From the IMG/VR virus record IMGVR_UViG_3300045988_183746: DNA of 64,000 nt. The stretch is one strand, 5' to 3'. This DNA is from a virus. Shown piece after piece: positions 4,367 to 54,622 of this stretch; the first letter of the stretch is position 1; each line of letters begins with the position of its first letter. The translations under genes were made by a program, and so were the position numbers. The notes under the pieces are model-generated. The model did not search any database and had not been told where the DNA came from. It saw only the letters and a program-made list of their open reading frames with translations.

Positions 4367-4390
4367 GGACCCCGACCATCGGGCTCCTAT
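4367..4390 (+). terminator. Hairpin element GGACCCCGACCATCGGGCTCC-TAT (family 2 palindromic element) downstream of the zincin gene
   Basis: Near-identical to the element at 53066-53089 and similar to the one at 51270-51293. Confidence 0.45.
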
Positions 4391-4514
4391 GTGTTAGTGC
4401 CTGGTGCGCTTCAATGAGAGAGTCTGGGTTACCACTGTGTGATATTACACCTAATATTCTGTTTGTCATATTGTTATAAATGAGTAAATTTGTATAGATA
4501 AAAAATCAAATAGT

Positions 4515-5108
4515 ATGGATTTAAAAAATATAGCAGCAAATTTTAATTCATTCAGCAGGTTACTGGACGATGAAATCCGGTCAAGAATTCCTGAAAGTGG
4601 CCAGATTGATATTGAACCGGAAGATAAATGTGTGTTCCACGATGATAATGACGATCGTCCGGAACACAGAATCGTCAAAGCCGTTTTTTTATCATCAGAC
4701 GGCACCGGTTACGGACTGATAACAGAGGACGAGTATTGCCGTGAAGCAACGGTCTGCAGTGCGGAGTGTTGTTTGTCCATTGATGACAAATACAACATCC
4801 TGAGAGCGGTAGATGATAAAACCAAACCATATGGAAAAACCCAAAAGCCAATGGTATGTCTGGGGGTCGTTGTTGGCAGACCGATTAATGGTATCTCCCT
4901 GAATGGACTTGAATATTTGCTTGACGAGGATGGAGAAATCGAGATTTTTCCGTCACTTGAAGAAGCACATCAGGTACTGATAAACGGTGGAGTCTGGGAA
5001 GAGGATTTGGACGAATTTGAATACCGAAAGGTCATGGAGTGTCCCAATTGCAAACAACGGACATTCGTCCACCTGAATGAGAATGTAACAGGATGTACAG
5101 ACTGTTAA
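4515..5108 (+). CDS. Hypothetical protein with C-terminal CxxC...CxxC zinc-ribbon
   Basis: 197-aa ORF ending in CPNCKQRTFVHLNENVTGCTDC. Confidence 0.55.
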   Translation: MDLKNIAANFNSFSRLLDDEIRSRIPESGQIDIEPEDKCVFHDDNDDRPEHRIVKAVFLSSDGTGYGLITEDEYCREATVCSAECCLSIDDKYNILRAVDDKTKPYGKTQKPMVCLGVVVGRPINGISLNGLEYLLDEDGEIEIFPSLEEAHQVLINGGVWEEDLDEFEYRKVMECPNCKQRTFVHLNENVTGCTDC

Positions 5109-5118
5109 TCCCAAGGCT

Positions 5119-5313
5119 ATGAACAAAAAGGAACAACTCAAATTTGTACATCGATATGTGAAAGGAATCACATGTCAGGTGATTGAACAGACCAGGACTG
5201 GATTCCGGGTAGTGGAAACGACTTTGGTTCACGGACGGAGAATAATCAAAGAAAAAGTGTTTGACAATATGGATTTTGACCCGGAATTTGGCTGTTGGGT
5301 CAAAGTGGAGTAA
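5119..5313 (+). CDS. Hypothetical small protein
   Basis: 64-aa ORF immediately downstream on the same strand. Confidence 0.35.
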   Translation: MNKKEQLKFVHRYVKGITCQVIEQTRTGFRVVETTLVHGRRIIKEKVFDNMDFDPEFGCWVKVE

Positions 5314-5510
5314 GATATACAATAATGCATGAAGTAAATGCCTGATTCTTTGGCTATTTCAATATGGATATATAATTTTGTGGTATAAATAAAACCGACT
5401 ATGGACAAATAGTCAGAAATAACTCATTACACGCTAAATGCCTAACTTGCATTGTGTTTTCAAAACAACACTGAGATATATAACATATTATTAATTAAAA
5501 CCTTAATCAA

Positions 5511-6938
5511 ATGGATGTAACTTTTGTATCCGTAGCTGTATTGCTACTTTTGTTGTTGTTGTTTGCTTCTTATGTCAAGACTTCACCGAACATCGCCATG
5601 GTGATTTCAGGATTAACCAAAAAGCCCCGATATTTGGTGGGAAAAGGTGGATTCCGTGTACCGTTCCTCGAAAAGACAGACAAACTGTATCTGGGGCAGG
5701 TTACTGTGGACATCAAGACCAAGGAGGCTATTCCCACAAACGACTTCATCAATGTGAAAATCGACGCTGTAGCCAAAGTGCAGGTTGATATGTCCGATGA
5801 AACCTTTGTCTGTGCCATTAAAAACTTCCTGAACGTCGGTCCGGCAATCATTGCACAAGAAGTTCAGGATACCTTTGAAGGTAACTTACGTGAATCTGTG
5901 GGAGCAGTTTGTCTGAAAGAGTTGAATGTGGATCGGGATGCCTTCTCTGATCAGGTTCTTGCCAAAGCAACGAAAGACTTGTCTACCCTTGGTCTGAAAG
6001 TGCTTTCCTGTAATATCCAGAACATCAGCGACGAGAATGGATTGATCAAGGCCTTGGGTGCAGATAACACTTGGAAAATCCGTCAGGATGCCGCCATCAC
6101 CAAAGCAAATGCCGAGAAAGCCATCGCTATTGCAGAAGCCAATGCAGCTCAAGAAGCCAACGATGTAAGAGTATTAAGCGAGACAGCTATCGCCGAGAAA
6201 AACAATAGTCTGGAGATTCGAAAAGCCGAACTGCAAAAGTCTGCTGACACCAAAAAGGCAGAAGCGGATGCTGCTTACGAAATACAGAAACAGGAGCAAC
6301 AGGCAACCATTTACCAAAAGACCATCAATGCTGAAATCGAGAAAACCCAACGTGAACAGGTTCTTTCTCAAGAGAAAATCAAAATCAAGGAGAATGAACT
6401 GACTGCCGAAGTGAACAAACAGGCAGATGCACATAAATACGAGGTGGAGAAAAAAGCAGAAGCGGAGCGATACGAAGCGGAACAAAAGGCACAGGCAGAA
6501 GCAGCCAAATATGCCAAATTACAGGAAGCCGAAGGTATCCGTACCGTCGGTGAAGCCAACGCATCAGCCGCACAAGCCATGTTTATCGCAGAAGCGGAAG
6601 GTCTGGAGAAGAAAGCTGATGCTTATGAACGATTCGGGCAGGCTGCCATTCTGGACATGGTTGTTAAGATTCTGCCACAGGTCGCAGCCGAAGTTGCCAA
6701 ACCGATTTCTTCCATCGACAGCGTAAATATCTACGATGGTGGTGTGGACAGAGTTTCCGGAAACGTCCCTGTTGTACTCAAACAGACATTCGACACAATT
6801 GAGTCGGCTACAGGCGTAAACCTAACTGACATTGTTCGCGCTAAGACCATCACTGCCAAGACAGACCGTAATATCAACATTTCTGGAGACTTGATTGGAG
6901 GTCGTAAAGAAACAGCGGAAGAAGAACCACATAATTGA
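5511..6938 (+). CDS. Flotillin-like / SPFH (band 7) domain membrane protein
   Basis: N-terminal TM helix (VAVLLLLLLLFASYV), an SPFH-like region, then a long Ala/Glu/Lys-rich coiled-coil (AEKAIAIAEANAAQEAN...) typical of bacterial flotillins (YqiK/FloT-like). Confidence 0.8.
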   Translation: MDVTFVSVAVLLLLLLLFASYVKTSPNIAMVISGLTKKPRYLVGKGGFRVPFLEKTDKLYLGQVTVDIKTKEAIPTNDFINVKIDAVAKVQVDMSDETFVCAIKNFLNVGPAIIAQEVQDTFEGNLRESVGAVCLKELNVDRDAFSDQVLAKATKDLSTLGLKVLSCNIQNISDENGLIKALGADNTWKIRQDAAITKANAEKAIAIAEANAAQEANDVRVLSETAIAEKNNSLEIRKAELQKSADTKKAEADAAYEIQKQEQQATIYQKTINAEIEKTQREQVLSQEKIKIKENELTAEVNKQADAHKYEVEKKAEAERYEAEQKAQAEAAKYAKLQEAEGIRTVGEANASAAQAMFIAEAEGLEKKADAYERFGQAAILDMVVKILPQVAAEVAKPISSIDSVNIYDGGVDRVSGNVPVVLKQTFDTIESATGVNLTDIVRAKTITAKTDRNINISGDLIGGRKETAEEEPHN

Positions 6939-7244
6939 TAGACTAGTTAACCCTCTCCTAATTTCATTAAGGTTTCATTCCTGAAATGGGATGCTGGAAT
7001 ACATATATGCCGGACAACTGGATGTGCAATGTTGTCCGGCATATTTGTTATCAGAGACCTACAAAAGGTCTCTTCTGTAGCCCGGATGTACAACACGGAA
7101 TACACCTTGGCTTTTATTTTTGTCTAATGTAGAATGACGGGGAGTACAACAATAAAATACATGCACGCTATATTGGAAAAGTTCGTTCTGTGCCGTCTTC
7201 AGGATTCATTCCTGGATGCGCGATAGATATAGGGATAGATTTTG

Positions 7245-8412: not shown

Positions 8413-8850
8413 ATGTCAAAGAATAAAGAGAATCCTGTGAAACTTGATTTGGAACGTTTCGAACAGCTGTACCCGAATGAGGAAGCCTGTGTCAAAGTGC
8501 TGGAAACCCATCTTTGGGATGGAGTGCTCCGGTCGCCTGTTGACGGGAATACCAGAGTGATCCGCATTAAAGGCAACCCAGGTTTTTATCGGGACCTTAA
8601 ACATAGACGAAATTTCAGTATTAGAAAAGGAACGGTGTTTGAGGACAGCTAGTTGAAACTGAAAGTATGGTTCCGCGCAATTCACGAGTTCTGTATTTCC
8701 CCGAACGGCATAACCTCATACGATCTGGCGCGTTGCTGTGGTGTAACGCAAAAAACTGGGTGGTATATGAAAAGGCGTATAGTAAAGAACCTCGAACAGT
8801 GCCGCAAAATACTGACGTATGGCTATAATGGGAATGCGCAGGTTGAATAA
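8413..8850 (+). pseudogene. IS1595-family transposase remnant (N-terminal zinc-ribbon/HTH part only; in-frame TAG at 8650-8652; DDE domain absent)
   Basis: Reads ...RNFSIRKGTVFEDS*LKLKVWFRAIHEFCISPNGITSYDLARCCGVTQKTGWYMKRRI, matching the IS1595 N-terminal region (TGTIFE..KLPL.KWF.AI.L.....KGIS...L.R.LGVTQKTAW). The Cys ligands are degenerate and the ORF stops after 65 more codons. Confidence 0.7.
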
Positions 8851-8932
8851 TACAATCTAATCTCTTGAATTATAATTGGTTGAAAAGACAAATCTTCGTA
8901 TCTTTGAGTATTGAAATTAAAACCTATGAAAT

Positions 8933-9971: not shown

Positions 9972-10203
9972 TCCGGTTATCCTAAAGTATCCAGTTCGTC
10001 CGGCATAGCTTGGCGATTGGATACTGACCGGAACCAGATCCACTGGTTCCTAAAAGCAGCACAGTTTCTATATTGAATGGGACGCTTCATTGGCAAAGTC
10101 TGTGTCGTTCCCTAAAAGTGTACTATCCTGCCCACAATTAGATTATCCTGTAGTTAATTTGTACCTTTGAGTATTGAAAATCAGCTGATAACAAAAAAAG
10201 GCT

Positions 10204-10993: not shown

Positions 10994-11188
10994 CGATATA
11001 TTGGGTGGGAAACCGCCTGATCCTTTGTTGACCTTGACCGGGAGCAGCGGCTTCCGGGTTATTTTCCGTGAAGGGAGGGCGCTTAAATGGAGAAGTATTA
11101 TCCCTAACCTTACACACAGAATACATTTAACAATGTATATATCAAAAGATTAAATAGTTATCTTTGTATAAAGATAATAGGAAAGGCA

Positions 11189-12821: not shown

Positions 12822-13232
12822 ATGGGAGTCAAACTTAAGTTCCGTCCCTCTTCTTCCAAGGGGAAGAAAGGATCAGTCCATTTTCAGTTTATTTACAGGA
12901 ATGAAATAAGGCATGTCCCGTCCGGATACAATGTATATCCGGATGAATGGCATGATTCTTTTGCATGTATTGTCATACCTGAAAATACAGATTCTGAACG
13001 GAAAGAATATCTGAGGGAGGCGTTCAAGGACTTATCAGAAAAGTTAGCCACTTTCAAAAAGGTTTTTGCTGCACTGAAATGGCAGAAGCGGATTATACCG
13101 TCGATCAGATCATTGAATTATGCTTCAAACCGGCGGCAAACTTTCACTTCCTTGCTTTTGCTCACAAGCTGGTCGGTGAGACCAAACTTGCCGGCAAGAC
13201 AAGAACGGTCGAGACATACCAGACCGCTTTGA
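12822..13232 (+). CDS. Tyrosine recombinase, N-terminal arm-DNA-binding domain ORF (frame 3; part of a frameshifted integrase)
   Basis: MGVKLKFRPSSSKGKKGSVHFQFIYRNEIRHV... resembles the N-terminal arm-binding domain of Bacteroides integrases. The protein-like sequence ends around 13078, where the frame 2 ORF begins. Confidence 0.55.
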   Translation: MGVKLKFRPSSSKGKKGSVHFQFIYRNEIRHVPSGYNVYPDEWHDSFACIVIPENTDSERKEYLREAFKDLSEKLATFKKVFAALKWQKRIIPSIRSLNYASNRRQTFTSLLLLTSWSVRPNLPARQERSRHTRPL

Positions 13233-14029
13233 ACAGTTTCGAGCGGTTCTTGAAAGAAACAGATCGTAACGGGCTGGAAGAGATGGGTAGCGGGCTGGTT
13301 GGTAAATACGGTGAATGGCTCCAGAGAAACGGCATTTGCCTTAACACGATGTCGTTCTATATGAGAAATCTGCGGTCAATGTACAATCAGGCTGTTGCCA
13401 AAGGTGTATTGGAACAACAGCAGCCTTTCAGCAATGTCTATACCGGTTCCAAGGAGGTGGTAAGATTTGCCGTTCCTTTGGATACAATCAGGAGAATACG
13501 CGACTTAGATCTGTCCGCTGATCCCCGTCTGGATTTTGCAAGGGATATTTTCATGTTCAGTTTCTATACCCGTGGCATGTCTTTTATAGATATCGCCAAC
13601 CTGAAAAAGGAGGATTTGAAAAACGGTTTCCTGACGTATCATCCCAGAGAGTCGAACAAGATACTGTCAATCAAATGGGAAAAGCCAATGGCAGACATCG
13701 TAGCCAAATACGCCAAGCATGAAACTCCTTTTCTGTTGCCTATTATCAGCGAGCCAGTGAGTGTCAACAGGAAAGAATACACAAATATACTTCACGCCAT
13801 CAATACAAGGTTGAAAAGAATAGGGCTGATGCTAAATCTGGATGTGCCCTTACAAACAAATATGGCCCGGCACGCATGGGCTTTGACAGCCAAGAACATG
13901 AACATACCCATACCGGTTATCTGCGAAGCTCTGGGGCAGAATTCCGAGAACACCACTTTGAGCTATCTGGCGACGATTGAAACGTCTCAGTCAGACAAAG
14001 CGAACAAGAATATTCTTGACTCCCTATAA
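13079..14029 (+). CDS. Tyrosine recombinase / integrase, SAM-like plus catalytic domains (frame 2)
   Basis: 316 aa with the catalytic-region signature HxxR (NMARHAWAL) and the C-terminal Tyr in TLSYLATIE. Fusing it with the upstream ORF gives about 402 aa, typical of Bacteroides integrases. Confidence 0.8.
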   Translation: MAEADYTVDQIIELCFKPAANFHFLAFAHKLVGETKLAGKTRTVETYQTALNSFERFLKETDRNGLEEMGSGLVGKYGEWLQRNGICLNTMSFYMRNLRSMYNQAVAKGVLEQQQPFSNVYTGSKEVVRFAVPLDTIRRIRDLDLSADPRLDFARDIFMFSFYTRGMSFIDIANLKKEDLKNGFLTYHPRESNKILSIKWEKPMADIVAKYAKHETPFLLPIISEPVSVNRKEYTNILHAINTRLKRIGLMLNLDVPLQTNMARHAWALTAKNMNIPIPVICEALGQNSENTTLSYLATIETSQSDKANKNILDSL

Positions 14030-14105: not shown

Positions 14106-14130
14106 CGGGAACGTACCAAACGTTCCCTAT
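14106..14130 (+). repeat. Palindromic element CGGGAACG-N7-CGTTCCCTAT (family 1), copy 1 of 4
   Basis: Other copies at 47516, 49016 and 54599; all lie downstream of + strand gene ends. Confidence 0.6.
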
Positions 14131-14239
14131 TAGGTATAGCCTGCTTAAATGAAGAAGCCTGAACCCTATTCCTTGCCTATTTATATCTATCTGATTATGT
14201 GTAATGTAGCTACAATTTAGTATCTTTACATATCAATAA

Positions 14240-15614: not shown

Positions 15615-15997
15615 AGTATTCCCATAATAGCTGGCAAAATTCCGGTGGTCAGGCATCATATAGATCTCCTGATTACCGGAGTTATATTATTCATGATATG
15701 GTTCCAATGTGGACGAGGGTGTGTCAAAACAGAAATGACAACTTCTAAAAGTTACAGATTGTAACGTATAACACTTAAAAGGGTCGTATCAAGCTCTGTA
15801 TGGAGTAATGATACGACCCTTTTGGGGATCTTTTAGGATGCTCAAATTTCAAATTATAAGTTCATCTTTTTAATAATTGAGTTTTGACACACCCTCTTGG
15901 TGTGCGATTAGTTGCTTTTGGCTTAAATGGAAATGCAGGATTCGAGATCTTCTTCCCGATATGCACGTGATATTTTTAACATGAATGTTTATTTAAT

Positions 15998-16005
15998 TAT
16001 CTTTG
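15998..16005 (+). promoter_or_regulatory. Bacteroidota -7 promoter element TATCTTTG
   Basis: About 30 nt upstream of the ATG at 16036. Confidence 0.5.
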
Positions 16006-17034: not shown

Positions 17035-17252
17035 CCCATTCCGACCGTCGGTTGCTTGTGAAAGTAGCCGGCGGTGTTTTTCGGATGTATGCTCAGGGCG
17101 ATGCCCCCCACTACCTAACAAACCAAATTCAACTAATCCCGCTTATTTAGGAAAGTACGAGCCTGCTGTTTACATACCATTAAACACCTGTATATCTATA
17201 TATTACACTCATTATAACTATATTTGTAGTAGAAATTAAAACCCCCAGTAAT

Positions 17253-17465
17253 ATGGCATGGTTAGCAGTAAATAAGAATGGAACAGAAATGGTTTTCCCC
17301 GAAAAGCCTGTATATGACGGCTGGGATTGGGAACATGTAGAGTTTATGGAGTTCGAGTGTGAGCAATTCTATGTCCCTACTGGGATTGAACTTCCCAAGG
17401 GCTCAATCCAAAAACTTGCCGGACGAATTATAACATTCAGTGACGGACCAATAGAAATCAAATGA
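17253..17465 (+). CDS. Hypothetical small protein
   Basis: 70-aa ORF. Confidence 0.45.
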   Translation: MAWLAVNKNGTEMVFPEKPVYDGWDWEHVEFMEFECEQFYVPTGIELPKGSIQKLAGRIITFSDGPIEIK

Positions 17466-17487
17466 TTCAAATAACCAAAACAGTAAT

Positions 17488-17973
17488 ATGGCAATAAATT
17501 TGAACAATTATGTAAAACAGGAAATAAAAACCTCCTATGCAATAAAGGTAGGCGATATTTTTTCCGACATGGGCGAGTCATTCGTCTTTCGGTGCGATAC
17601 AATAAAAGATGGTTTCCTGTATTGCACATTATTAGAGGGTGACGCGGACGGACTGAAGCCCGAAAAAGATGGCAAGTATATGTTATGTATTTGCGATGTA
17701 ATATGGCAAGTCCTGACTCCTGCCAAATATAAAGCGTATGTCCTTTTTGGGGATGATATTTGCATCGCATACAATAACGGATCATTGGAAGAATTATTGA
17801 ATGATCCCGATGGAAAGTGCTTTGACATTACAGTCCGTGAGTTTGAAACAGAAGCAGAACGCGATGCGTACCTGTTAGGAATCAATGATCATGAGGACTG
17901 GGTTGGTCATGCGGTGCTGACAGAGAAGTTTGACTCCGAAGAGATTAAACTTCTTGAGAGCAAAGGGTACTGA
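17488..17973 (+). CDS. Hypothetical protein
   Basis: 161-aa ORF. Confidence 0.6.
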   Translation: MAINLNNYVKQEIKTSYAIKVGDIFSDMGESFVFRCDTIKDGFLYCTLLEGDADGLKPEKDGKYMLCICDVIWQVLTPAKYKAYVLFGDDICIAYNNGSLEELLNDPDGKCFDITVREFETEAERDAYLLGINDHEDWVGHAVLTEKFDSEEIKLLESKGY

Positions 17974-18736
17974 CTAGTGAAGTCCGGGCAGTTATCCCTG
18001 CCCGGCAGCGTGTCCCTTTCCGGAATCTGAACACAGATTCCTATCTTACGATTTCGATAAAATATATTCAATAATAAATATTATTCAGAGTTATCGTATG
18101 TAACAAATTAATATTCATATAGTTAATAGCTTCAAGTATAACTTTTCAAGTTATATCCCCCTATATCTGATTTTCGACATATAACTGGACATTTTAATAA
18201 TTACCACATATAAGTTAACAGGGGAAATTGTGTTAATGTATAAATATTGTTATTTTTTGTTCCATGTGAATATACAAACTAACCGAAGTCGCTATATTTG
18301 CATAATAAGACCTTATAAGTAATTAGTATCTTAAGAACTTTGACCATGAATAAAATAAAAAAACACATTCCTAATAAGAAATGTTTGAGTAACAATCGTT
18401 TCGGAAATATAAAAATAAAGATTCTAAATATGCCCCAATATACCGATAAGGAGTTAACTCAATCCTATATAAAAAACATGAAAAAAATAGAAGCCATTTT
18501 GAAATCATAATACAATAGCTTGTTCCAAAAAAGTATAGCCTACTATATAAGGAATATATTTTCTGTTTATCACCTTTATTCCTATCAGAAACAGGATTAT
18601 GGATTTTCGGTGTACTTAATGCTATATTCTTAATATATGCGACTTTATATTTTATGACTGAGAATAATGATAAAGAATGAGTTTGTTGTAACGAATAATA
18701 TATTTTTTAGCAATTAGTATCATAAAAACTTACACT

Positions 18737-18925
18737 ATGGACATCATTTCTATTTTTTCGTCAGTTGCAGGATTAGAAGAACTCATTGTCTTTTTAGTAT
18801 TTATTGTGCTTCCCCTTGTTATTTTATGTTCAAGTCGTCCCACCTGTAGCTTTGAAGAAAGTGCATGGAAAGAGATCACTGAGGATGATGATAAGAATGA
18901 ACACCCAAATGATGATAAAAAATAG
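18737..18925 (+). CDS. Hypothetical small membrane peptide (hydrophobic N-terminus, acidic C-terminus)
   Basis: 62 aa, lying in a very AT-rich island. Confidence 0.3.
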   Translation: MDIISIFSSVAGLEELIVFLVFIVLPLVILCSSRPTCSFEESAWKEITEDDDKNEHPNDDKK

Positions 18926-18940
18926 TAAGCTTAATATTAG

Positions 18941-19213
18941 TTATTTCTTCCAATTATTACACGATTTAACAGCTTTAATTATAAGAATACCAAAACCTGT
19001 AAGCAAAAATAGAAGGATTATTAAGTAATCATTACTACAGCCTTTTTCTTCTAAAAGAAAGAAATACTCAGAATACATAATGATGGAAGAAATATAGGCC
19101 AACACAAGATATTCCGGCATCTTTGATTTCAAATGTATTTTTTTATTTCCCATACTAAAGAAAACTAAAAAGAATGGGACTGTACTTAGTGAATATAATA
19201 TTGAATTTCGCAA
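18941..19213 (-). CDS. Hypothetical small membrane protein (about 3 TM helices)
   Basis: 90-aa ORF in the AT-rich island; one of the few minus-strand ORFs. Confidence 0.3.
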   Translation of the reverse strand: MRNSILYSLSTVPFFLVFFSMGNKKIHLKSKMPEYLVLAYISSIIMYSEYFFLLEEKGCSNDYLIILLFLLTGFGILIIKAVKSCNNWKK

Positions 19214-19925
19214 GGAAACAATAATATTATGGATGAATATATATATTATCAGTATTGTAATTATCTATATTAGCGAAAATAAAAATTGTATATATTATTA
19301 TACATAGCAAATGAAGTTTTGGGATTTCATTTCTGCTTAATACACTGTTAAAGAAAACAAATAAGCGAATGATATTGTCCATAGTGTAAGTTCTATATAG
19401 ACTTTGCCTAGCGTTTTAACGAGTCATAAGCCAATATGCCATCAAACGGCCATCAAATATTATGCGTTGTATATTAACGGTTTACGATTCGTCAAACAAT
19501 ATGTTTTCTACCTAATATATCCTCCTTATTAATTCTGTATGATGGGCTAAGATCGTTTTATTTGGTAAAAAATAAAATCAGGTGATACTTATATTCTATC
19601 GGCAAGATGTTTTCTATGAATTTTTCCAACAGGCCGTCCCTGTCAGTCATAAGGCCCCTGAATACTATAATCCCTTCCACCTTCCATATCACTTTGCAAA
19701 ACAGCAGAACAAGGGAATAAGGTTGGAATGAAGGAAATAGGTTAAGACAACATACTGATTGCTTCCGTTTTCATGCAGCGTCCCGCATATCCTTTCACAA
19801 TAGCAGGCTGAATCTTATATTCTCCTTTCATCAAAAAACGAGCAGGTACGCAAACTTTCCGTGGCAATTATTTGTATATATAATAAATCACAGGTATTTT
19901 TGCCACAGGATTAAAGAAGACACGC

Positions 19926-20279
19926 ATGAAGACAATGAATCAAATTATTGGCGATAATCTGAAAAGAATCAGAGAATTGTCCGGCTTCACGCAGGAGCAG
20001 ACAGCAAAGTCTGTCGGCATCGAGCGTTCGGCATACAGCAATTATGAGGGAGGGACAAGGGAAGTCCCTTATGATGTCTTGGAACGGATTTCAAATATAT
20101 TCGGCTGTGAGCCTTTCATCCTATTTGAGGATAATATTCAAGCGGACAATGAGATTCTGGCCGCTGCCTTTAGAATCTCCGATTTGGAGGATGATGACTT
20201 AAAGGAAATTGCGAATTTCAAGGATATTGTGAAATCATACCTGAAAATGGAACGGATAGCCCAAAATGAAGCCGAATAA
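19926..20279 (+). CDS. XRE-family helix-turn-helix transcriptional regulator
   Basis: IGDNLKRIRELSGFTQEQTAKSVGIERSAYSNYEGG is a classic Cro/C1-type HTH. Confidence 0.85.
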   Translation: MKTMNQIIGDNLKRIRELSGFTQEQTAKSVGIERSAYSNYEGGTREVPYDVLERISNIFGCEPFILFEDNIQADNEILAAAFRISDLEDDDLKEIANFKDIVKSYLKMERIAQNEAE

Positions 20280-21000
20280 GTTTGTTATAGAAAAACAGGT
20301 GGCAGCCTTTCGTATGGACAACGGGCTAGGAGCGTCCGAACCTGTCACACTGAAAAGCCTGCTTCTGAAACTGAATGTGCTTACAGTGTTCAGACCCCTC
20401 TCCGACAGCTTTTCCGGAATGTGCCTGAAGGACAATTCCGGACATCGGTTCATGCTTGTCAATTCCAACCAGCCCATGGGAAGGCAGCACTTTACCATAG
20501 CACACGAATTATATCATTTGTTTATCGAGGAAAAGCCCACACCCCATAAATGCAATCCCGGCAACAGTAAAAATGTCGTGGAACAAAGTGCCGACATGTT
20601 CGCTTCTTCATTTCTGATGCCAGAAGCCGGCATTTGTCAGTTGACACCGGAAGACGAGTTAAGGGGCAAAAACGTTTCTTTAGGAACGATATTGAGACTT
20701 GAGCACTATTTCTCCGTTTCCCGTTCGGCTTTGTTGTACAGGCTGCTGAACCTTGGCATTATAACGGAATCCGCCCGTTCCAAATTGGCGGAAACAAGTG
20801 TGAAATACTCTGCAAGATGTTTTGGGTACGATACAGCTCTGTATGAAGCCGCCAACGAGGGTCTGGTGATAGGTGATTTCGGAGAAAAAGCCCGTAATTT
20901 GTTTGACCGGGGCAAAATCTCAGAGGGTCATTACATGGAATTACTTCATAAAATCAATGTCGATGGAATGCAGGAAAACGAAAATAGTACTGGATGCTGA
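20266..21000 (+). CDS. ImmA/IrrE-family zinc metallopeptidase (DUF955)
   Basis: FTIAHELYHLF HExxH motif; overlaps the XRE gene by 14 nt. Confidence 0.85.
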   Translation: MKPNKFVIEKQVAAFRMDNGLGASEPVTLKSLLLKLNVLTVFRPLSDSFSGMCLKDNSGHRFMLVNSNQPMGRQHFTIAHELYHLFIEEKPTPHKCNPGNSKNVVEQSADMFASSFLMPEAGICQLTPEDELRGKNVSLGTILRLEHYFSVSRSALLYRLLNLGIITESARSKLAETSVKYSARCFGYDTALYEAANEGLVIGDFGEKARNLFDRGKISEGHYMELLHKINVDGMQENENSTGC

Positions 21001-21487
21001 TGTGATTATCCACTTCATCGAGGCAGACTGCTTTTCATTGCTTCCTGACATATTCCCTGAATATGAGTATGTGGTTCTGGATGTAGTCTATAATGAGGTT
21101 GCCAAAAACAATAAGACCAAGGGCTTCATTGACAATTACCTTCATTTCTTCCCAAAACTGAAAAAAGAGGAATTTGCGCCCAAGGGGGAATCCATAAAGG
21201 AATACTTCCTGCTGCAACGGACATTGGGAAAAGGGGAAAGCGCATGTATGGTATATTGCAGGGACAATCAGGATGTTTTAGGGAGCAGCAATTTGAGGGA
21301 CATAAATAGCTACTGCCTGGCAAACAACATAACCTATCTGACTACAATCGATTTCCTGTATTACGCCTATTGCCGAAAGAAAATGACAGGGCAGGAATGT
21401 GCCGAATTTATGCAAGCCGTCAATGATGCGGGCAGCAAGCTTCCCATGATTGACATAACCCAATATGTATGCACCGTGCAAATCTGA
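20963..21487 (+). CDS. PIN-like domain protein (putative nuclease/effector)
   Basis: Starts MECRKTKIVLDADVIIHFIEAD (PIN-like N-terminal acidic motif), with a later GKGESACMVYCRDNQD...LTTIDFL region. Begins inside the ImmA 3' end in another frame (ORF track 20873..21487). Confidence 0.55.
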   Translation: MECRKTKIVLDADVIIHFIEADCFSLLPDIFPEYEYVVLDVVYNEVAKNNKTKGFIDNYLHFFPKLKKEEFAPKGESIKEYFLLQRTLGKGESACMVYCRDNQDVLGSSNLRDINSYCLANNITYLTTIDFLYYAYCRKKMTGQECAEFMQAVNDAGSKLPMIDITQYVCTVQI

Positions 21488-21931
21488 CCGTATCCGGTTT
21501 GACGGTCATCAACATCTTAAGTAATTTGCCATGGATACTAATTCAAACAGACTGACTGCGGAAGAAATCAGGAAACTCCGTGAGATGAATTTCTGCAAAG
21601 AACCGGGGTTTGTAAAGGCTGAAGCTGTGTTGGCATCGGAAGCCGGAGAGCCGGGAAGTCCTGAACGCAAAGACTTCGATGCGAAAGCACGCGCCTGGTA
21701 TAATGGAGAGTCCTTGTGTGACAGAAATATGGAGGCTAGAACCGGCTCCCCCAAATGATACTGAAAAACCGAGTATCACCTACACATATACCAATTCTAT
21801 AAAGAAGGAGAGGCTGATTTGCAGTTGCCCTCCTTCATGTCCATAGCAGACAATCGGTGTCCGATTCTACGTCCTGGTATGGACCCGATATGAATCCTAC
21901 TCCGACTTCTGCTGTTTTTTTCTAAAAAAAA

Positions 21932-21962
21932 TCCAAATTTCCTCCTTGAAATTTGGATTTTT
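21932..21962 (+). terminator. Bidirectional rho-independent terminator (10-bp perfect stem TCCAAATTTC/GAAATTTGGA flanked by A-run and T-run)
   Basis: Perfect inverted repeat with a 6-nt loop, A8 upstream and T5 downstream. Confidence 0.55.
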
Positions 21963-22744
21963 GGATTGGAACTCTTTTTTATAGATTACTCTTCTCTCCT
22001 TTTTCTTTATTAATTTCTTTTTGCTCTCTTCGGGAGTGAATTTCTGAATCTATGATTCATCAATAATTTGGAAAGGAATAGTGTTATTTATTGTATTACT
22101 CTATATAGTATATTTCTACACATGCGGACATCTATTTTATAGGTTTTCTGCTTATATGGTAAAGTAATTTATAAATGGTAATATATATAATATACATATA
22201 TACAATAAGTTATTGTTAGATTATAACTATATTTGTATATCAAATTAAACGAATTATCAACTATTTAAAATCGAAATTATATCAGTTATGAACTATTTAC
22301 TTCTGTTTTTATTTATTGCTTGCTTTGTAAGCATGTCATTGGGTTTTGCATGCTCATTATGCCATTGATTGCAGCCGCTATTTGTAAAGGCATATTAGGT
22401 TATTATAATGATGAATTACTTAGACCAGAAAGACTTTTCGGAGCGTTCTGCCTAATGATAGCAGGGTTGGTCGGTACACTAATATTTATTTATTAAACAT
22501 AACCAGAATATATATTTTAAATAGTTATGAAGAGTCTATTGACTTTTATCATCAAAAGAAATAGACTCTTTATACTATAATTATATTCAAAAACAGTGTC
22601 AATAAAATAGTTTTTCATTTATCCTGATTGATCCTTTTGTATCGCTTTCTCAATTTCACTAAATCTTTTTCCAAAGTATTTAAATTTTTCTGTATCAACT
22701 GTATATTCTGATTGTTGCTTTAATATTGTTTTACTAATTCGCCT

Positions 22745-34834: not shown

Positions 34835-35035
34835 GAGATGCCCCCATCTCCCTTTATCCATATTCAAACACCCTTATTTTCTGTCACACAATTCCCCCAT
34901 AGAAGGTGATATTTCAAAGTTTTAGGCCAATGCTTCAATAGGAAAGTCAGCTTCTGGGATCCTGAAAAATAATAGCTCTTAATACTTTATTATTCAATAT
35001 TTTATCATTATATTTGCAATAGAAATCAAACATCA

Positions 35036-36826: not shown

Positions 36827-37032
36827 GGCAACCTACAAATTATGGATACTAATCTTACCATTGAGCAAATCCACCTTGCCCTCCGGAACAGTGGGTCCCG
36901 CTTAATTGGAGAAGTATCATCTGACCCCGAATCTTTATTTCCCTTTTGGGGTTGTATAACTATCTGGCTTATAATTAGTATCTTTACATTGTTTCAAAGA
37001 GGAAACTTAATCAGGAACCTACTAAAAAACTT

Positions 37033-38278: not shown

Positions 38279-38651
38279 CAATTTTGTTGTTCACTTGTGG
38301 GCACCCTGCCCGGAAGCCAACACCGGCTTCCTATGTAGTTTAATATATAATCCTATAAGAATTAAAATTGATAGAAATGGGGAAATTAGCTTACCGCTGC
38401 AAACGGCCACACAACAAACCATTATGGCTTTTGCGCATTCAGTGTGACATATCTGTGGATTTTATCAATGAAGAGTATTCGGAAGAAGTTCTGCCGGAAC
38501 TTAAACAGTATATTGATAAAAAGATTCTGGATTTGGTTTAAGCAGGAGGAATCAAACGGAGTTTTGTCACTACTATGCTGAAAAAGGAGGGACAGAAAAC
38601 CGTGTTGTGGATTGTCCGTAATGATATTCCACTCCAGCAATATTATATAGA

Positions 38652-39334
38652 GGGAGTAACTCCCTAAAAATGGTGTCCGCTTCAATGGTAAAGTAGGGTT
38701 GTAAGTTAAAATCAAACCTCTTTACTCATTATGTAAGTGTCTGAAAAAGAATTAGTATCTTTACATCAGTAAAGAAAATCAAAGACAATATGGAAGAATT
38801 TAATATTCACGAAGTAGCAGAGGAAAACAATCTGGATGTGATTAGTACCACAACCGGGAAAAATGGATATCCACAGTCGGTTAGATATGCAATCACCGGT
38901 TTCCCTAATTTTTCAGAGGCAGAGAAATTGGCCGAGAAATACGGATTGCGTATCACTACTTTCTGGAAAAAAGCAGGTTGGCAACTCTATGTCAGAGACC
39001 GCAATACGACATTCGAGCCGATGGGCATTTCAGCCGAAAATTATGGCGATGATTACATGGCATTCGATTCAAGCAGTGCGGAATCGTTTTATGAAGACGA
39101 AGTGAAACCATTGCTGGATGACATCAATAGCCTTGAAGACTTGGAGAAATTTGTGTCTGGCCGCAAAGAATTGCTTGACGAGATCAAGAGTATCGACGAA
39201 ACCCAATTGGTAATAGCCTGCCATGGCCATTATTATGAGACGATAGATAAGGAAACAATGGAATGGTCGTTCGATTCGAATACTTATGTTATCGGAGTTA
39301 TCAAAGACTAATAATTAAGCGTATGAAAACATAT
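38652..39334 (+). repeat. 683-bp direct repeat, copy 1 (promoter plus acidic-protein gene plus first 12 nt of next gene)
   Basis: About 98-99% identical to 54704-55386. Confidence 0.9.
38790..39311 (+). CDS. Acidic hypothetical protein, possible ArdA-like anti-restriction DNA mimic (speculative)
   Basis: 173 aa with a net strongly acidic D/E-rich central region (GDDYMAFDSSSAESFYEDEVKPLLDDINSLEDLEKF); a duplicate lies at 54842. Confidence 0.65.
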   Translation: MEEFNIHEVAEENNLDVISTTTGKNGYPQSVRYAITGFPNFSEAEKLAEKYGLRITTFWKKAGWQLYVRDRNTTFEPMGISAENYGDDYMAFDSSSAESFYEDEVKPLLDDINSLEDLEKFVSGRKELLDEIKSIDETQLVIACHGHYYETIDKETMEWSFDSNTYVIGVIKD

Positions 39335-42998: not shown

Positions 42999-43518
42999 TA
43001 CGCCATAGGAGCCGACACCGGCTCCTTCCTCCTACTCCGAACAATAAATGGCCTGCATGAAAAAGTTCGAACTCAGGTGCACACAGACATTCAACAACAA
43101 TATAATAGCTTGCTACACAAATAAAAAGTATTTTTGTATAAATCAAAAGTTTAGATTATGAAAAAGAGCAAGAAAAGGCGTAATGCCCCATCCACCCCTC
43201 TGGCAGCATTTCACAAAGGTAGCCGGGATGCGGAGATACAGGCTTTCGGCAAACCGGTACCACGGCACAATGTAGTCACCTCAAAGAAGGTGTATCGTCG
43301 GAATCGCCGGGTAGATTTCGATTGACACGGTTGTCTTCCTTCTTCCACCCGGAGAACCATACTGTCCTCCTATAGATCGTTATTGATAGCTTGAATGAAA
43401 GAGTTTCACTCCCCTATCCTAAATGCTAATATTCTGTATAGGTTAGGAAAACTTATATAAATATACTATATTTGTGATTATTAATGAATTAGAATATTAA
43501 CCATCAAACTTTAAGAAT

Positions 43519-43998: not shown

Positions 43999-44267
43999 TC
44001 TATATTGGAATCCGGACAAGGCAGGCTGACACAGCTTTCCTTGTTCGGCAACAACTCACACAGAGGGGTATCGGCATGTTTTCTTGCCAACGCAGACCGA
44101 CCACGGTCTGCTGAAATATGGGTGAAATATCGCCGATCGTGGGGTATTTATGGTATCCGCAATAATGGAAAAGTCCGACCTGATACTACTCTTTCCCTTT
44201 TGTTTTCCGGAACTATGAAGACTCCCTATATTTCTGTATATTTGCATCATAATCAATGAGATAAAAG

Positions 44268-45676: not shown

Positions 45677-45898
45677 CTGCTAGGGTGATCCGGTCATTCG
45701 GAACACCCTACTCCCCTATTTGCAGAACCTGACCATCAGGTTCTTATCTGCCAGTAATATGGAGTGGCTTTAATGGAAATGTTTCAACCATATAGGGTGA
45801 AAGAGCTTTCTTAATTTCTATTTCATAAACACATTGAATTTAAGTAACTTTGTGTATATCAAATAGATAGATATAATAAAGAACATAATTAAATAGTT

Positions 45899-46396: not shown

Positions 46397-46651
46397 CGCA
46401 TTCCAGCCGCTTTTTAGCGGCTGCAGTATAAAAGTCTGGTGGAGGAGCCAAAAAAATAAAGCCGGAACACTCGTACAGGGACGGGGAAAAGTCGAAGCAA
46501 GGCACTAAGAAAGAACCTGTCCCACAAACAACACACACGCCAAAACGACACAAACGGCTGAATAAAACAGGACCTGAAATTGTAATGCGCATTACAAAAG
46601 CATAAAAACAGATTTCCTGCTTGTACTTCCGGAATAATAGCCTTTCTTTTT

Positions 46652-46678
46652 ATGTGTACCAACTTTGGTACACATAAA
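46652..46678 (+). promoter_or_regulatory. Perfect 11-bp inverted repeat TATGTGTACCA-actt-TGGTACACATA, putative antitoxin operator
   Basis: Lies 15 nt upstream of the antitoxin ATG at 46693. Confidence 0.5.
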
Positions 46679-46692
46679 AAGAAAAGAACAGT

Positions 46693-47515: not shown

Positions 47516-47539
47516 CGGGAACGCGCTCACGTTCCCTAT
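47516..47539 (+). repeat. Palindromic element CGGGAACG-N6-CGTTCCCTAT (family 1), copy 2
   Basis: Reads cgggaacgcgctcacgttccctat. Confidence 0.6.
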
Positions 47540-47667
47540 CAAGTATTTTTACCAAAGTAAATGGATTGGCTTCAATGAGAGAGTCACGACCTACTTGCTT
47601 GATATTATAATCCGTTTGGTTTTCTTTTATGTCCAATGTTTTTTATATTTTTGCATAGAATAAAACA

Positions 47668-49015: not shown

Positions 49016-49039
49016 CGGGGACGTACTCACGTCCCCTAT
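49016..49039 (+). repeat. Palindromic element CGGGGACG-N6-CGTCCCCTAT (family 1), copy 3
   Basis: Reads cggggacgtactcacgtcccctat. Confidence 0.6.
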
Positions 49040-49322
49040 GATCCCCCTCCTTATAAAGTAGATGCAGGCATTGTGACTGCTCTGCTTATATGAGAATGTA
49101 TGAACCTGAACATTCACCGGAGGCATTTCATTATCTATATCATTATAATACAGCATTTTAGTATCTTTGAATATGAAAGATAACCAAAATTAGTCATGGG
49201 AATAGGAAGAGAAAAAATAGACTGGGATGATTTCTTACTAAATGAAATTTTCAGCCCTCATTGAGGGAGCGATGATGTAAGACCGGAAGATAACAGCGAG
49301 TATTCTTGCACTACAGCTAAGT

Positions 49323-50108: not shown

Positions 50109-50330
50109 TTTTTTATATATACGGTTGTTCCATACAAAGTACGGTGCAACCAGTTTCACTCTGCATTCCAATTCTGGCGAAACTTGAACCCAAGTTTCTT
50201 TCAGTGTCCCCTATTTCCCTTTTGCTTATATGGAATAGTAGAACCCTGCCACAGAGTTCTGATATGGTGATATATATTGGGTAATGTGCTGGGATTTCTG
50301 TAACTTTACAATGTTGAAAGACAAAGAATT

Positions 50331-51117: not shown

Positions 51118-51269
51118 CTATTCTTCAAATGAGATAAAGGGGGTCAACGGTGTGCGAACATAGTTGACCGCACAAACACTACAAAGTGTTTGGTATTTAG
51201 TTAATTGTGAAATGGACTGCCTGTATGTGAATATGGGCAGTTTTTTCTTTTTGACTTAGGTATATCCCC

Positions 51270-51293
51270 GGAGTCCCACAACGGACTCCTATT
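51270..51293 (+). repeat. Hairpin element GGAGTCC-CACAAC-GGACTCC-TATT (family 2), immediately followed by an iteron-core copy CCACCTATGGGG (51288-51299)
   Basis: 7-bp perfect stem, plus a Rep-iteron core motif about 50 kb away from the origin. Confidence 0.5.
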
Positions 51294-51434
51294 GTTACCA
51301 CCTATGGGGATAAAGATTGAGATCCTTTAAGAGGGAGAACTTAAGCATTTGGTTTTGCTTAAATGAGAATGTTTTCATCGCCCACCATTAGATCTTTCTT
51401 ATTGATGTCATTATTTAATAGAACCATATTTATG

Positions 51435-51442
51435 TATCTTTG
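51435..51442 (+). promoter_or_regulatory. Bacteroidota -7 promoter element TATCTTTG
   Basis: The ORF-track start (TTG, 51440) lies inside this motif; the real ATG is at 51467. Confidence 0.5.
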
Positions 51443-53019: not shown

Positions 53020-53048
53020 CCTGCCCAATTCGGGCAGGTTTCTTTATG
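53020..53048 (+). terminator. Rho-independent terminator (CCTGCCC/GGGCAGG stem plus TTTCTTTAT)
   Basis: 7-bp stem with a 5-nt loop and a T-rich tail right after the 53008 stop. Confidence 0.65.
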
Positions 53049-53065
53049 TCCGTATGCCGTGTTCG

Positions 53066-53089
53066 GAGCCCCACCATTGGGCTCCTTTT
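53066..53089 (+). terminator. Hairpin element GGAGCCCC-ACCAT-TGGGCTCC-TTTT (family 2)
   Basis: Perfect stem plus T-run; near-identical to the element at 4367. Confidence 0.6.
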
Positions 53090-53221
53090 AGCTTATAAAA
53101 GGATAGGAAAGCTTAAATGAAAGAGTAGGTATCATCCCCTATCCTACTATTCCCTTTGGCTATATTTCGTTATGAGAGACCATTTATATATCTTTGTATC
53201 AAAGAATTAAATCAAACAAAT

Positions 53222-53587
53222 ATGGAATATAAAGAATTAGTGGAGCAGGAAAGCCAGCTAAAAAAGAGCCAAGTCTTGTACATCAAAGAGGTTCTCGCCC
53301 AAAACAACGGACGGGTGGAAATGAAATACAAGCCCCAAGAAGAGTTTGAGGACGAAAGTGACAATGAAACAGACTGTTTCTACGATCAGTTCCCGGTCAT
53401 GATTGCCGTTCCGGGTAGACACGGTACGTTCAATCTCCATGTAACTGCGGTTTATGAGGATCATAACGGAAGCCTTCGTTGCGAAGGTATCAACGACAAT
53501 ACCGACTCTTTGGAAAAGAAGATATACTTCTGCGACGAATCCTATTCCTCCATCGCATATTTTCTGCATCAAATAACAAACAAATAA
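53222..53587 (+). CDS. Hypothetical protein
   Basis: ATG at 53222 (MEYKELVEQ...) downstream of the promoter motif at 53189-53196. Confidence 0.5.
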   Translation: MEYKELVEQESQLKKSQVLYIKEVLAQNNGRVEMKYKPQEEFEDESDNETDCFYDQFPVMIAVPGRHGTFNLHVTAVYEDHNGSLRCEGINDNTDSLEKKIYFCDESYSSIAYFLHQITNK

Positions 53588-53597
53588 TCCTTATTGT

Positions 53598-53819
53598 ATG
53601 AACAAGAAAGAGATTTTACCACAGCAAGTTGTTCCTGGAAAGACCTATTCATTTTCCGGTGACATCAAGAACGGATGCTATGCCGACGGTACACCACGTA
53701 TCTCTCATGAAGAGGTCACCAGAGAGGTGTCCTATGTAAAAGATAACCTGATTGTCTGCGTGTGCGGACGCCAATTTATCATTAACGAGAACTTGAAAAT
53801 CCAAAAGTTCCCTTATTAA
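53598..53819 (+). CDS. Hypothetical small protein
   Basis: 73-aa ORF. Confidence 0.45.
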   Translation: MNKKEILPQQVVPGKTYSFSGDIKNGCYADGTPRISHEEVTREVSYVKDNLIVCVCGRQFIINENLKIQKFPY

Positions 53820-53847
53820 AATCCAAGACAAACAAATAAGCATAAGT

Positions 53848-54324
53848 ATGAATATCGAGAATTTGAGAAATAGAGTGGATGCTCTTCAAAAGACAGAAAA
53901 TACACTCTTAGTTCTGGCAATGCACAAAGCGGGATTGAAAAATGTGAATTGTTCCGACAAACAACTGAATCTTTGTGCCGTTCTTGCAGGGAATCCTGTC
54001 ATCTTCAAAGTCAAGGAATTTTGGATGGAGGGTGATTCTGGTAAGGAAACAGTATTCTTTTTAGGATGTTGCGACCCGATTGAACATATCACCCTCAAAT
54101 GCGAGGATATTCTTCCCGGAATGGTATCTAATATTCTGGAACACATACCCAATGTGAATGTTTCCGATTTGTCTGTGTTGCCACAGGGTACAGATGATGA
54201 TATTGACGAAGCATTAGTATCATCGTTAGAGTATTTGGAGCAAGAAAGAGACTGCATTTGTGACACGGAATTATACGAAAGATGCTGTAAATTAGAAAAG
54301 TCCAGACAGCATTTCTGGGACTGA
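53848..54324 (+). CDS. Hypothetical acidic protein
   Basis: 158-aa ORF. Confidence 0.55.
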   Translation: MNIENLRNRVDALQKTENTLLVLAMHKAGLKNVNCSDKQLNLCAVLAGNPVIFKVKEFWMEGDSGKETVFFLGCCDPIEHITLKCEDILPGMVSNILEHIPNVNVSDLSVLPQGTDDDIDEALVSSLEYLEQERDCICDTELYERCCKLEKSRQHFWD

Positions 54325-54598
54325 TTACCTTATTCGATTTAACCAATCCTTCCTGTCCGGATTTCCTGGACAGGAATCAAACATATCTATAGCATGAACA
54401 TAAATGTACTCACGATCCGGAGAACATCTACACAGGTGTGATGGTTTCGGATGAATCTCTCATTCAGGATTATATCGAAACAAACGAATATACCGAGACT
54501 GCCGAGCATATCATGCGTCTCCAGAAAGCACAGGCCGTTGCTTTCATTGCAGACGCATGGGAACTGACACTTGTTCCTTGCGTCTGATCTTCATCGAC

Positions 54599-54622
54599 CG
54601 GGAACGCACACCCGTTCCCTAT
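54599..54622 (+). repeat. Palindromic element CGGGAACG-N6-CGTTCCCTAT (family 1), copy 4
   Basis: Reads cgggaacgcacacccgttccctat; a degenerate copy (GGGAAC..GTTCC) lies just upstream at 54559-54579. Confidence 0.6.

Follow-up and report, generated by a model that had tools for sequence, protein, structure and literature searches.

The 64,000-nucleotide (nt) stretch of viral DNA held in IMG/VR as record IMGVR_UViG_3300045988_183746, here called the window, raises the question of what a mobile element does with some 20 short palindromes that all point the same way. An initial annotation had described two families of such palindromes ending in CCTAT, placed downstream of + strand genes, and had suggested that they may be terminators or RNA-stability hairpins that mostly lack a U-tract or, alternatively, could be promoters or priming sites that fold in single-stranded DNA (ssDNA). 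The CCTAT-tailed palindromes are real and occur far beyond chance, and each is accompanied by a second motif, which itself keeps a nearly fixed distance to a promoter element. The reading that we favor, at only slightly less than an even chance, is that nearly every + strand operon of this element would start with a hairpin-headed, co-oriented promoter cassette head, in which a 15-nt box would be an activator site on duplex DNA and the hairpin would be a boundary at the RNA level.

The box was seen when the flanks of the annotated hairpins were printed, a short way 3' of every one of them. In the window, the pattern GCTTMAATGRDRRAG has 17 matches with at most one mismatch, all on the + strand, versus 0.39 expected, and TAnnTTT[G/A] was found 77 to 79 nt from the box for 18 of the 18 boxes examined. 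TAnnTTTG is the -7 box of Bacteroidetes sigma-A promoters, knowledge of which rests on a -33/-7 pair (PMC7366714). The complete module consists of the hairpin, 10 to 60 nt (mostly about 18 to 26), the asymmetric 15-nt box cGCTTnAATGGaAAAGT, a spacer of 62±1 nt, the -7 box TAnnTTTG, an A-rich leader of 20 to 50 nt and the ATG; TAnnTTT[G/A] is present in all modules and lies 19 to 52 nt before the start codons in the examples counted. When the window was scanned with a two-block position-weight matrix (PWM) made up of box and -7 box, 28 modules were found on the + strand and none on the - strand, whereas block shuffles gave 0 to 2, or about 0.5 on average. Modules occur throughout the + strand block, starting at 2.4 kb and continuing for at least 10 kb past the window end, where at least five more are seen in comparison locus L311; an element thus carries at least 33. 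Of the 15 intergenic gaps of 120 nt or more in a 22-kb stretch with called genes, 12 contain a module. The motif is thus at most of the promoters of the element and is absent from the DNA flanking the block and from the - strand genes (Rep3, an insertion sequence element and an intron), and we file the module as an element-wide promoter regulon, a known kind in a new form.

Comparison loci (designated L and a number) were fetched from metagenomes as PcfJ relatives, and among them the module was found only in close relatives and in one divergent element, L137, whose PcfJ is 45% identical. The 13 modules of L137 keep the 77/78 spacing, and their boxes start with ACTT in 13 of 13, compared to GCTT in 37 of 37 modules of the window type. 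A third lineage, L321/L322, was reached via a conserved 94-amino-acid protein; its 12 modules use the box GCTTNNNTGGRAWAG, and AAAGCCCGacacCGGGCTTT is an example of its hairpins. Across 62 nonredundant modules from the three lineages, the spacing from box to TA was 77 nt in 26, 78 nt in 34 and 79 nt in 2, with no other value. When TTTG was sought about 20 to 25 nt upstream of the -7 box, this -33 element was present in 6 of the 62 modules, versus 37 of 75 TAnnTTTG sites in relatives without the box. More distant relatives (L323 to L326) have no box and carry ordinary -33/-7 promoters. These results demonstrate that strand specificity, rigid spacing and architecture are conserved in three lineages, each with its own box variant. 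PcfJ relatives at 47 to 60% identity are without the module, so its distribution does not track the PcfJ tree. The box-less relatives L323 to L326 share the 94-amino-acid protein and UvrD, look phage-like (NUMOD4, Kyano_Gp96) and in three cases encode their own 237-amino-acid sigma-70-family factor (L323 14817-15530, L324 10151-10864, L326 17682-18395). A PcfJ-bearing relative without modules encodes a 163-amino-acid protein with an RNA polymerase alpha C-terminal domain (PF03118; L309 4371-4862).

The distance between the centers of the box and the -7 box is about 74 bp, or about seven helical turns, and the box lies about 85 bp upstream of the presumed start. This register is fixed both linearly and helically, so it could be read only on DNA. 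Because of the fixed register, the missing -33 and the lineage-specific box variants (G versus A at position 1, which is indirect support), it is likely that RNA polymerase is assisted at all of these promoters by a box-binding protein that the element encodes. Such a protein, an activator or an RNA polymerase accessory protein, would use the box as an upstream promoter element on duplex DNA and would compensate for the absent -33 contact, and the shared box would place all operons under one control. Phage phi29 protein p4 binds at -82 of promoter PA3, and class I CRP sites lie at -61.5 to -92.5; these sites are palindromic, and CRP is active at several registers. The box is like them in its position some 80 to 90 bp upstream, on the same helical face, of a promoter without -35/-33, and unlike them in being asymmetric and in keeping its spacing within ±1 nt in 62 copies; the activator, moreover, is only proposed here. 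The RP4 KorA/KorB and IncW R388 operators are palindromes that lie at variable distances and act in repression. The present element resembles those regulons in having one short motif at most backbone promoters, which would give plasmid-wide control, and differs from them in the asymmetry and fixed distance of its box and in the hairpin that accompanies it. Two further uses of the box were tried and rejected: pairing with the -7 region showed no covariation, as judged by eye, and leader peptides from an ATG inside the box would have unconserved frames of 3 to 30 codons, with two boxes lacking an ATG.

The order of hairpin, 10 to 25 nt and a conserved single-copy box also brings to mind signals that act on the transcribing polymerase, such as rrn boxB-boxA, lambda nut and the opsX of UpxY, in which case hairpin and box together would load an antitermination factor that acts across cassettes. 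BoxA cores have sequences such as GCUCUUUAACAA, and the core of the box, CUUnAA (CUUUAA, or CUUGAA in L137), resembles them. Bacteroides, moreover, recruits NusG paralogues through pause hairpins and about 40 bp of DNA recognition (PMC11685472). The phylum is the same, and opsX, too, joins an RNA hairpin to a longer, operon-specific stretch of DNA recognition, the variants of which co-evolve with their protein, but opsX is a pause site in a transcribed leader, whereas the box lies upstream of the -7 box, outside the leader, at a rigid distance that an RNA signal would not need. A hairpin-stabilized pause needs 10 to 12 nt, for which the 10 to 60 nt between hairpin and box are too loose, and no NusG paralogue or KOW protein was found among the proteins scanned. 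We therefore regard an antitermination signal as quite improbable.

All of the annotated hairpins proved to be parts of this module or its neighborhood. Family 1, annotated with a loop of N6/7 and searched here as CGGGRACG-N5-8-CGTYCCCTAT, is exact at its four + strand sites (Table 1) and was found in 0 of 100 dinucleotide-preserving shuffles; the copy at 49016 carries a compensatory change of an A-T to a G-C pair. What had been annotated at 54559 as a degenerate copy is a 5-bp stem (GGAAC/GTTCC) inside a bigger hairpin, CAGACGCA...TGCGTCTG, and is not counted as a member. Family 2 is exact at 51270-51289 and at 53065-53085 (a start previously given as 53066), both on the + strand, with none in shuffles, while the third copy, GGACCCCGACCATCGGGCTCCTAT at 4367, is real yet imperfect, having a C.C mismatch and lying outside the literal consensus. 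The two families are not separate; they are subfamilies, or stem variants, of a single class that has about 20 hairpins in the window. Each consists of a C, a GC-rich stem of 7 to 9 bp, an ACNN loop (usually 4 nt) closed by a G:C pair and then T-A-Y, the commonest form being an 8-bp stem with a 4-nt loop and the consensus c-GGnnnCCG-ACnn-CGGnnnCC-TAY. Among 31 strong module hairpins, C is at -1 in 21 and T is at +1 in 26, often followed by A-Y, and the usual tail of TAT or TAC gives way to mixed sequence. The CCTAT tail was thus correctly noted and too narrowly described, since CCTAY itself is enriched at two positions relative to the box, at -70 to -11 (35 observed versus about 6.7 expected) and again at +20 to +29 (10 versus 1.1). 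Near-identical stems recur: family 1 has four copies in the window and one in L311, and three copies each were seen of GGAATCCG (in L137) and GGAAGATG. No module matched Rfam even at E values up to 5.

Selection on the structure of the hairpins, as had been proposed, is well supported. Double changes were found at 8 of 8 stem pairs among 16 copies; these copies had been picked as hairpins, and the independent evidence is the enrichment, since 56% of modules, versus 3.6% of shuffled controls, have a strong hairpin in the 80 nt ahead of their box. From the varied yet compensated stems we infer that the hairpin probably acts in a single strand. That this strand is RNA, and that the hairpin is a boundary within it, is a tentative choice to which we give somewhat less than an even chance. 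As a U-tract-poor, probably factor-assisted terminator or a 3'-end-protecting hairpin, it would end or trim the transcript that reads in from the upstream unit, and each cassette would thereby have its box and promoter insulated, whatever the place of insertion. In 19 of 31 cases the module hairpin is the sole hairpin within the stored upstream sequence (up to about 120 nt), so that the upstream transcript must be ended there by something; the conserved T at +1 and some T-rich tails agree with such a role.

The same position at operon ends and the same T at +1, together with T-rich tails in 8 of 31 hairpins and the fact that a loose terminator scan picked up two of them, would also fit ordinary intrinsic terminators of the upstream genes that come near the next promoter only through compact intergenic regions. 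However, as the initial annotation had noticed, most copies lack a U-tract: at least five T residues in the 8 nt after the stem were found in only 8 of the 31, leaving 23 without a T-tract. The loop and closing pair are also unlike those of terminators in related elements; in 441 kb of other PcfJ-bearing elements, hairpins with an 8-bp stem and 4-nt loop have GNRA-like loops and T-tracts, and only the module-bearing elements have the class with AC loops and few T-tracts. Some hairpins come after a true terminator. The distance from the preceding + strand stop codon is about 44 to 275 nt, much as annotated, and is far more variable than the 13 to 21 nt between hairpin and box in the eight L137 modules measured, where the hairpins are of the same kind (for example, GGAATCCGactcCGGATTCC-TAC, three times). 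Finally, the hairpins move with the downstream cassette, as described next. Ordinary terminators are thus a very improbable explanation.

A 689-bp segment is present twice in the window at 98.5% identity, at 38646-39334 (copy A) and 54698-55386 (copy B). Its left end is 5 nt short of a hairpin and its right end lies about 23 nt past the stop codon of its gene; it contains the hairpin, the box, the -7 box and that gene, which encodes a 173-amino-acid protein with no function assigned. In L133, another module and gene stand in place of the window's cassette, and the left breakpoint is the 5' edge of the same hairpin. Because both the duplication and the L133 swap start at the hairpin, the hairpin is the head of a promoter-gene cassette rather than the tail of the upstream gene, and the framing of the palindromes as elements downstream of genes has to be given up. 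At position 55944, the window is without a 424- to 1,050-nt segment that is present in L133 (9225-9648) and L312 (1637-2689) and holds an alternative gene end, a GGAAGATG hairpin and a full module; there, the two flanking genes overlap (ATGGATAA) without a promoter.

These exchanges, the recurrence of nearly identical stems and an integrase-like tyrosine recombinase gene inside the block (13079-14029) could mean that the hairpins are recombination sites or their footprints, whether attC-like sites for that recombinase, REP/RAYT-like elements or shared linkers for homologous exchange. Integron attC sites are imperfect palindromes of 57 to 141 nt with R and L boxes at the 3' ends of promoterless cassettes, next to intI and attI, whereas the hairpins here span about 20 nt, with much shorter stems, and stand at the 5' ends of cassettes that have their own promoters. 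REP elements are genome wide, in both orientations and clustered, with a GTAG head and an RAYT gene. The hairpins are like them as dispersed extragenic palindromes that follow genes and have a conserved short tail beside the stem, but all copies are single, in one orientation (unlike REP/BIME clusters), confined to the block in the DNA compared and tied to a promoter, and no Y1 (RAYT) transposase was seen in the protein scans. Hairpins do not mark the right-hand boundaries of the exchanged segments, and recombination alone would leave the conserved loop and the constrained distance to the box unexplained. We consider recombination sites improbable.

A stronger competitor, which we nevertheless hold to be unlikely, is that the hairpins are signals in ssDNA, on either the transferred strand or the lagging-strand template, for example priming sites for each cassette or sites for another hairpin-recognizing enzyme. 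A hairpin left free of ssDNA-binding protein (SSB) would be followed by a 5'-CTR-3' initiation trinucleotide of the G4 type, and one such site per cassette would allow fast duplex conversion and expression. G4-type primase origins and the hairpin promoters of phage N4 are short ssDNA hairpins that are read by an enzyme, G4 needing three hairpins. The present hairpins resemble these as stable short structures with a few conserved bases at the loop and the 3' junction, but unlike in those systems, no primase or virion-type polymerase was found here. The unpaired C at -1, the T at +1, the G:C closing pair and the AC loop suggest a sequence-specific partner rather than host termination, and about 21 of 31 copies have C-T-A or C-T-G at the junction. 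The restriction of the hairpin class to module-bearing elements, and the several hairpins that lie behind a classical terminator in DNA expected to be little transcribed, fit as well. The gene content is of the ssDNA or establishment type, with an SSB gene at 59179, more SSB genes past the window, UvrD, an exonuclease, PcfJ, LPD1/LPD5 and orphan methylases; one variant has a MobC_2 gene about 4 kb left of the block; and UvrD of the recipient is reported to be involved in conversion from single- to double-stranded DNA (PMC10085688). On the other hand, the T at +1 is expected just as much for a degenerate terminator, and the mismatches in imperfect stems favor neither strand (two or three G.T versus three A.C). 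A search of the window and its surroundings located no origin of transfer (oriT), no relaxase and no primase, so that the leading region suggested in the initial annotation is only presumed, and the iterons and Rep3 gene suggest a theta-type origin, so that conjugation is only presumed. It is likewise unlikely, in our estimate, that the module represents a new form of promoter recognition in which a factor of the element reads the box some 85 bp upstream instead of a -33 and is coupled to a protein-recognized C-stem-TAY hairpin that acts in ssDNA; if this were true, each cassette would carry all that is needed for quick duplex conversion and expression after transfer.

The more specific idea that the hairpins are ssDNA promoters of the Frpo/ssi type, folding to mimic a duplex promoter, is already contradicted by their structure and is the least credible of the alternatives. 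Like the Frpo/ssi elements of F and ColIb-P9 (PMC11541004), the hairpins are intergenic, co-oriented, structure forming and ahead of establishment-type genes, and the setting, with genes all in one orientation, is like the establishment and anti-defense region described there. Unlike Frpo, a long stem-loop that rebuilds a -35/-10 duplex, the stems have 7 to 9 bp, too short for both promoter elements, and contain no -33/-7 motif; the promoter box is instead about 100 nt downstream, in ordinary sequence, and each module is followed by an ordinary -7 box and a normal leader. A long ssDNA hairpin across the module was sought and rejected, in that 17 whole modules folded no more stably than shuffles (z scores of -3.0 to +1.2, mostly near 0) and shared no common long helix. 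A palindrome over the -7 box, as an operator or duplex-forming hairpin, was likewise rejected, being only marginally above chance (mean, 5.0 versus 4.7 bp).

Several observations weigh against the reading that we prefer, in which the box is an activator site and the hairpin an RNA boundary. A clear hairpin is missing from about 40% of modules, and in about 6 to 10 cases a classical terminator lies between the stop codon and the module hairpin, so that RNA would seldom reach the latter. Most of the hairpins have no U-tract, which mycobacterial RNA polymerase is reported to need for intrinsic termination (Czyz et al. 2014, as cited in PMC11685472). Conservation in the loop and flanks suggests a specific partner, which could be an ssDNA enzyme just as well as an RNA-binding factor. 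As for the box, the spacing of ±1 nt is tighter than is usual for activators of the class I type, which are active at several helical registers; the 62-nt spacer has no conserved column and no A-tract phasing at 10.5 bp; and Pfam, PHROGs and NCBIfam gave no candidate for the box-binding protein, nearly all small proteins being without a match. The presumed start sites and 3' ends are placed by consensus.

Public assemblies of gut metagenomes contain this plasmid-like element very often: its UvrD-like protein is indexed as exact copies in 5,317 assembly blocks and a 129-amino-acid protein in 12,560, on contigs of up to 660 kb. Assemblies GCA_003472185.1, GCA_022835275.1, GCA_024125345.1 and GCA_041336835.1 contain it, and the 92-kb contig ERZ19211063 NODE_227 is an example of the complete element. 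The promoter type and weak matches point to a host among the Bacteroidales. No locus with two or more modules was found in about 2 Mb of unrelated loci, and enrichment relative to host chromosomes is judged from these and the flanking DNA. Genome contigs gave only single chance matches to the full module pattern, from many phyla, among the matches listed. Viral contigs searched with the family 1 hairpin and half-module patterns gave singletons with no second module, and under those exact patterns the element was not found in IMG/VR. In PLSDB, searches by DNA, Rep3 and PcfJ returned no related plasmid, the best match being a 25%-identical Rep of a Bacteroides uniformis plasmid. The intergenic regions of L135 are 98 to 100% identical and gave no information from phylogenetic footprinting. 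Searches of the literature by topic and by sequence strings found no description of the module.

Table 1. The 28 modules of the window, all on the + strand, from the two-block PWM scan and a hairpin search upstream of each box
Module	Hairpin	Box	-7 box	Remarks
2303-2484	AAAGCCCGaccaCGAGCTTT, 2303-2322, one C.A mismatch, CCTAT	2399-2413, GCTAAAATGGAAAAG	2477-2484	Module 1; heads LPD1/LPD5 gene at 2529
4367-4492	Family 2 copy, GGACCCCGAccaTCGGGCTCC-TAT, 4367-4390	4408-4422	4485-4492	Preceded by separate hairpin 4325-4349 directly after stop codon
7167-7252	No strong hairpin nearby	GCTATATTGGAAAAG		Spacing 78
8822-8906		GCTATAATGGGAATG		Spacing 77; weak, lowest score among the 28
10030-10169	GGAACCAGatccaCTGGTTCC-TAA, 10030-10050	10084	10162-10169	
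11038-11166	CCGGGAGCagcgGCTTCCGG, 11038-11057, one G.T pair	11081	11159-11166	
14106-14228	Family 1, 14106-14130	14143-14157	14221-14228	
15888-16005	CACACCctcttGGTGTG, 15888-15904	15921	15998-16005	
17141-17226	None	GCTTATTTAGGAAAG		Spacing 78
22150-22235	No GC-rich hairpin			In low-GC island
23700-23785	No GC-rich hairpin	GCTTGAATGGAAAAG		Spacing 78
27814-27931	AAAGCCCGactaCGGGCTTT-TAT, 27814-27833	27847	27924-27931	Preceded by classical terminator 27764-27785 with TTTTCT
33386-33524	11 bp, 33386-33415	33439	33517-33524	
34780-35016	GGAAGATGacaaCATCTTCC (34780), AGGGGAGATGccccCATCTCCCTT (34831)	34932, GCTTCAATAGGAAAG	35009-35016	
36900-36986	None	GCTTAATTGGAGAAG		Spacing 79
38646-38763	AGGGAGtaaCTCCCT, 38651-38665	38679	38756-38763	Opens duplicated cassette copy A
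43007-43136	AGGAGCCGacacCGGCTCCT, 43007-43026, CCTAC	43051, GCCTGCATGAAAAAG	43129-43136	
43351-43474	Family 2-like, GGAGAACcatactGTCCTCC-TAT, one A.C mismatch	43389	43467-43474	
44092-44244	GCAGACCGaccaCGGTCTGC, 44092-44111	44159, GCAATAATGGAAAAG	44237-44244	
45724-45852	AGAACCTGAccaTCAGGTTCT-TAT, 45724-45744	45767	45845-45852	
47516-47653	Family 1, 47516-47539	47569	47646-47653	
49016-49169	Family 1, 49016-49039, compensated G-C variant	49084	49162-49169	
50179-50308	GAAACTTGaaccCAAGTTTC, 50179-50198, CCCCTAT	50224	50301-50308	
51270-51442	Family 2, 51270-51292	51357	51435-51442	Heads PcfJ; preceded by classical terminator 51214-51243 with TTTCTTTTT
53065-53196	Family 2, 53065-53088	53111	53189-53196	Preceded by classical terminator 53020-53038 with TTTCTTT
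54599-54815	Family 1, 54599-54622; second hairpin GGGAGtaaCTCCC, 54703-54717	54731	54808-54815	
56879-57010	GAAAGCCGccccCGGTTTTC, 56879-56898, one G.T pair	56925	57003-57010	
63647-63731	None	GCTTTAATGGAATAG		Spacing 77

Other features of the window and its relatives were recorded along the block. A complete group II intron lies on the - strand at 189-2056, just left of the first module, with Rfam domains at 1939-2056 and 189-263 and a reverse transcriptase/maturase open reading frame at 302-1564; it is the only Rfam match that passes the gathering score, and it is missing from some copies of the element (L313). To the left of the block (L314 4884-5780; L313 to L315 7800-9450) are a hipBA toxin-antitoxin pair and, in a single variant, a MobC_2 mobilization gene, which are the sole hints of a transfer origin near the block. 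In other copies (L002 to L004, 1-5900), the block begins at a point equivalent to about 36.4 kb of the window, after - strand resolvase, bPH_2 and Toprim_2 primase-like genes, and the element is thus a mosaic. A low-GC island at about 17200-23700 (30% at 18 to 20 kb) contains modules without GC-rich hairpins, as well as an HTH_3 gene (19926) and an M78/ImmA-like peptidase gene (20266) that are predicted to be a regulator pair of the ImmR/ImmA type. The block is broken up by an insertion sequence element with a DDE_Tnp_1_6 transposase on the - strand (31642-33297), beside which weak, sub-threshold Rfam matches to the Bacteroides small RNAs GibS and BTnc060 occur at 33204-33421. A near-perfect palindrome with a 20-bp stem, CTTTTCTTTTTATGTGTACCAAAGTTGGTACACATAAAAAGAAAGG, lies at 46641-46686 in an 825-nt gap that has no module and could be a bidirectional terminator or a protein site. 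Toward the right end, at least 12 iterons of about 18 to 22 nt (TTTACCCCAYAGSTGRTRAYAT), in both orientations, occupy 61216-62440 upstream of a - strand Rep3-family gene (59761-61002), and together these constitute a predicted theta-type plasmid origin. A second Rep3/DnaA_N gene is located about 3 kb past the window (L311 13246-14616).

Among known systems, repetition of a regulatory region before several operons of a mobile element has a counterpart in EGeRS1/EGeRS2 of pLS20/p576, a conserved region repeated in four or five copies upstream of co-regulated establishment and anti-restriction operons (PMC8708921). The p576 type is about 140 bp long; within it lie a sigma-A promoter and an operator, along with short inverted repeats to which a role in RNA stabilization has been ascribed (PMC8708921). 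Unlike these Firmicutes regions, which have sigma-A -35/-10 promoters, a promoter-overlapping operator and a known repressor, the module occurs in at least 33 copies, shares no sequence similarity with them and has a rigidly spaced box far upstream.

Nearly all genes of this very common element are without an assigned function, and the module provides a precise marker of operon starts and cassette boundaries in such poorly annotated elements. It could also supply compact, insulated and co-regulated expression parts for engineering of the gut microbiome. Should the hairpins act in ssDNA, establishment signals that serve individual operons would become known for the first time beyond the Frpo type. 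A 15-nt element seven helical turns upstream of a -7 promoter that lacks a -33 would extend promoter recognition in the Bacteroidetes, and the use of one promoter design more than 30 times implies a single control point, a possible switch for establishment, anti-defense or maintenance genes in the Bacteroidales.

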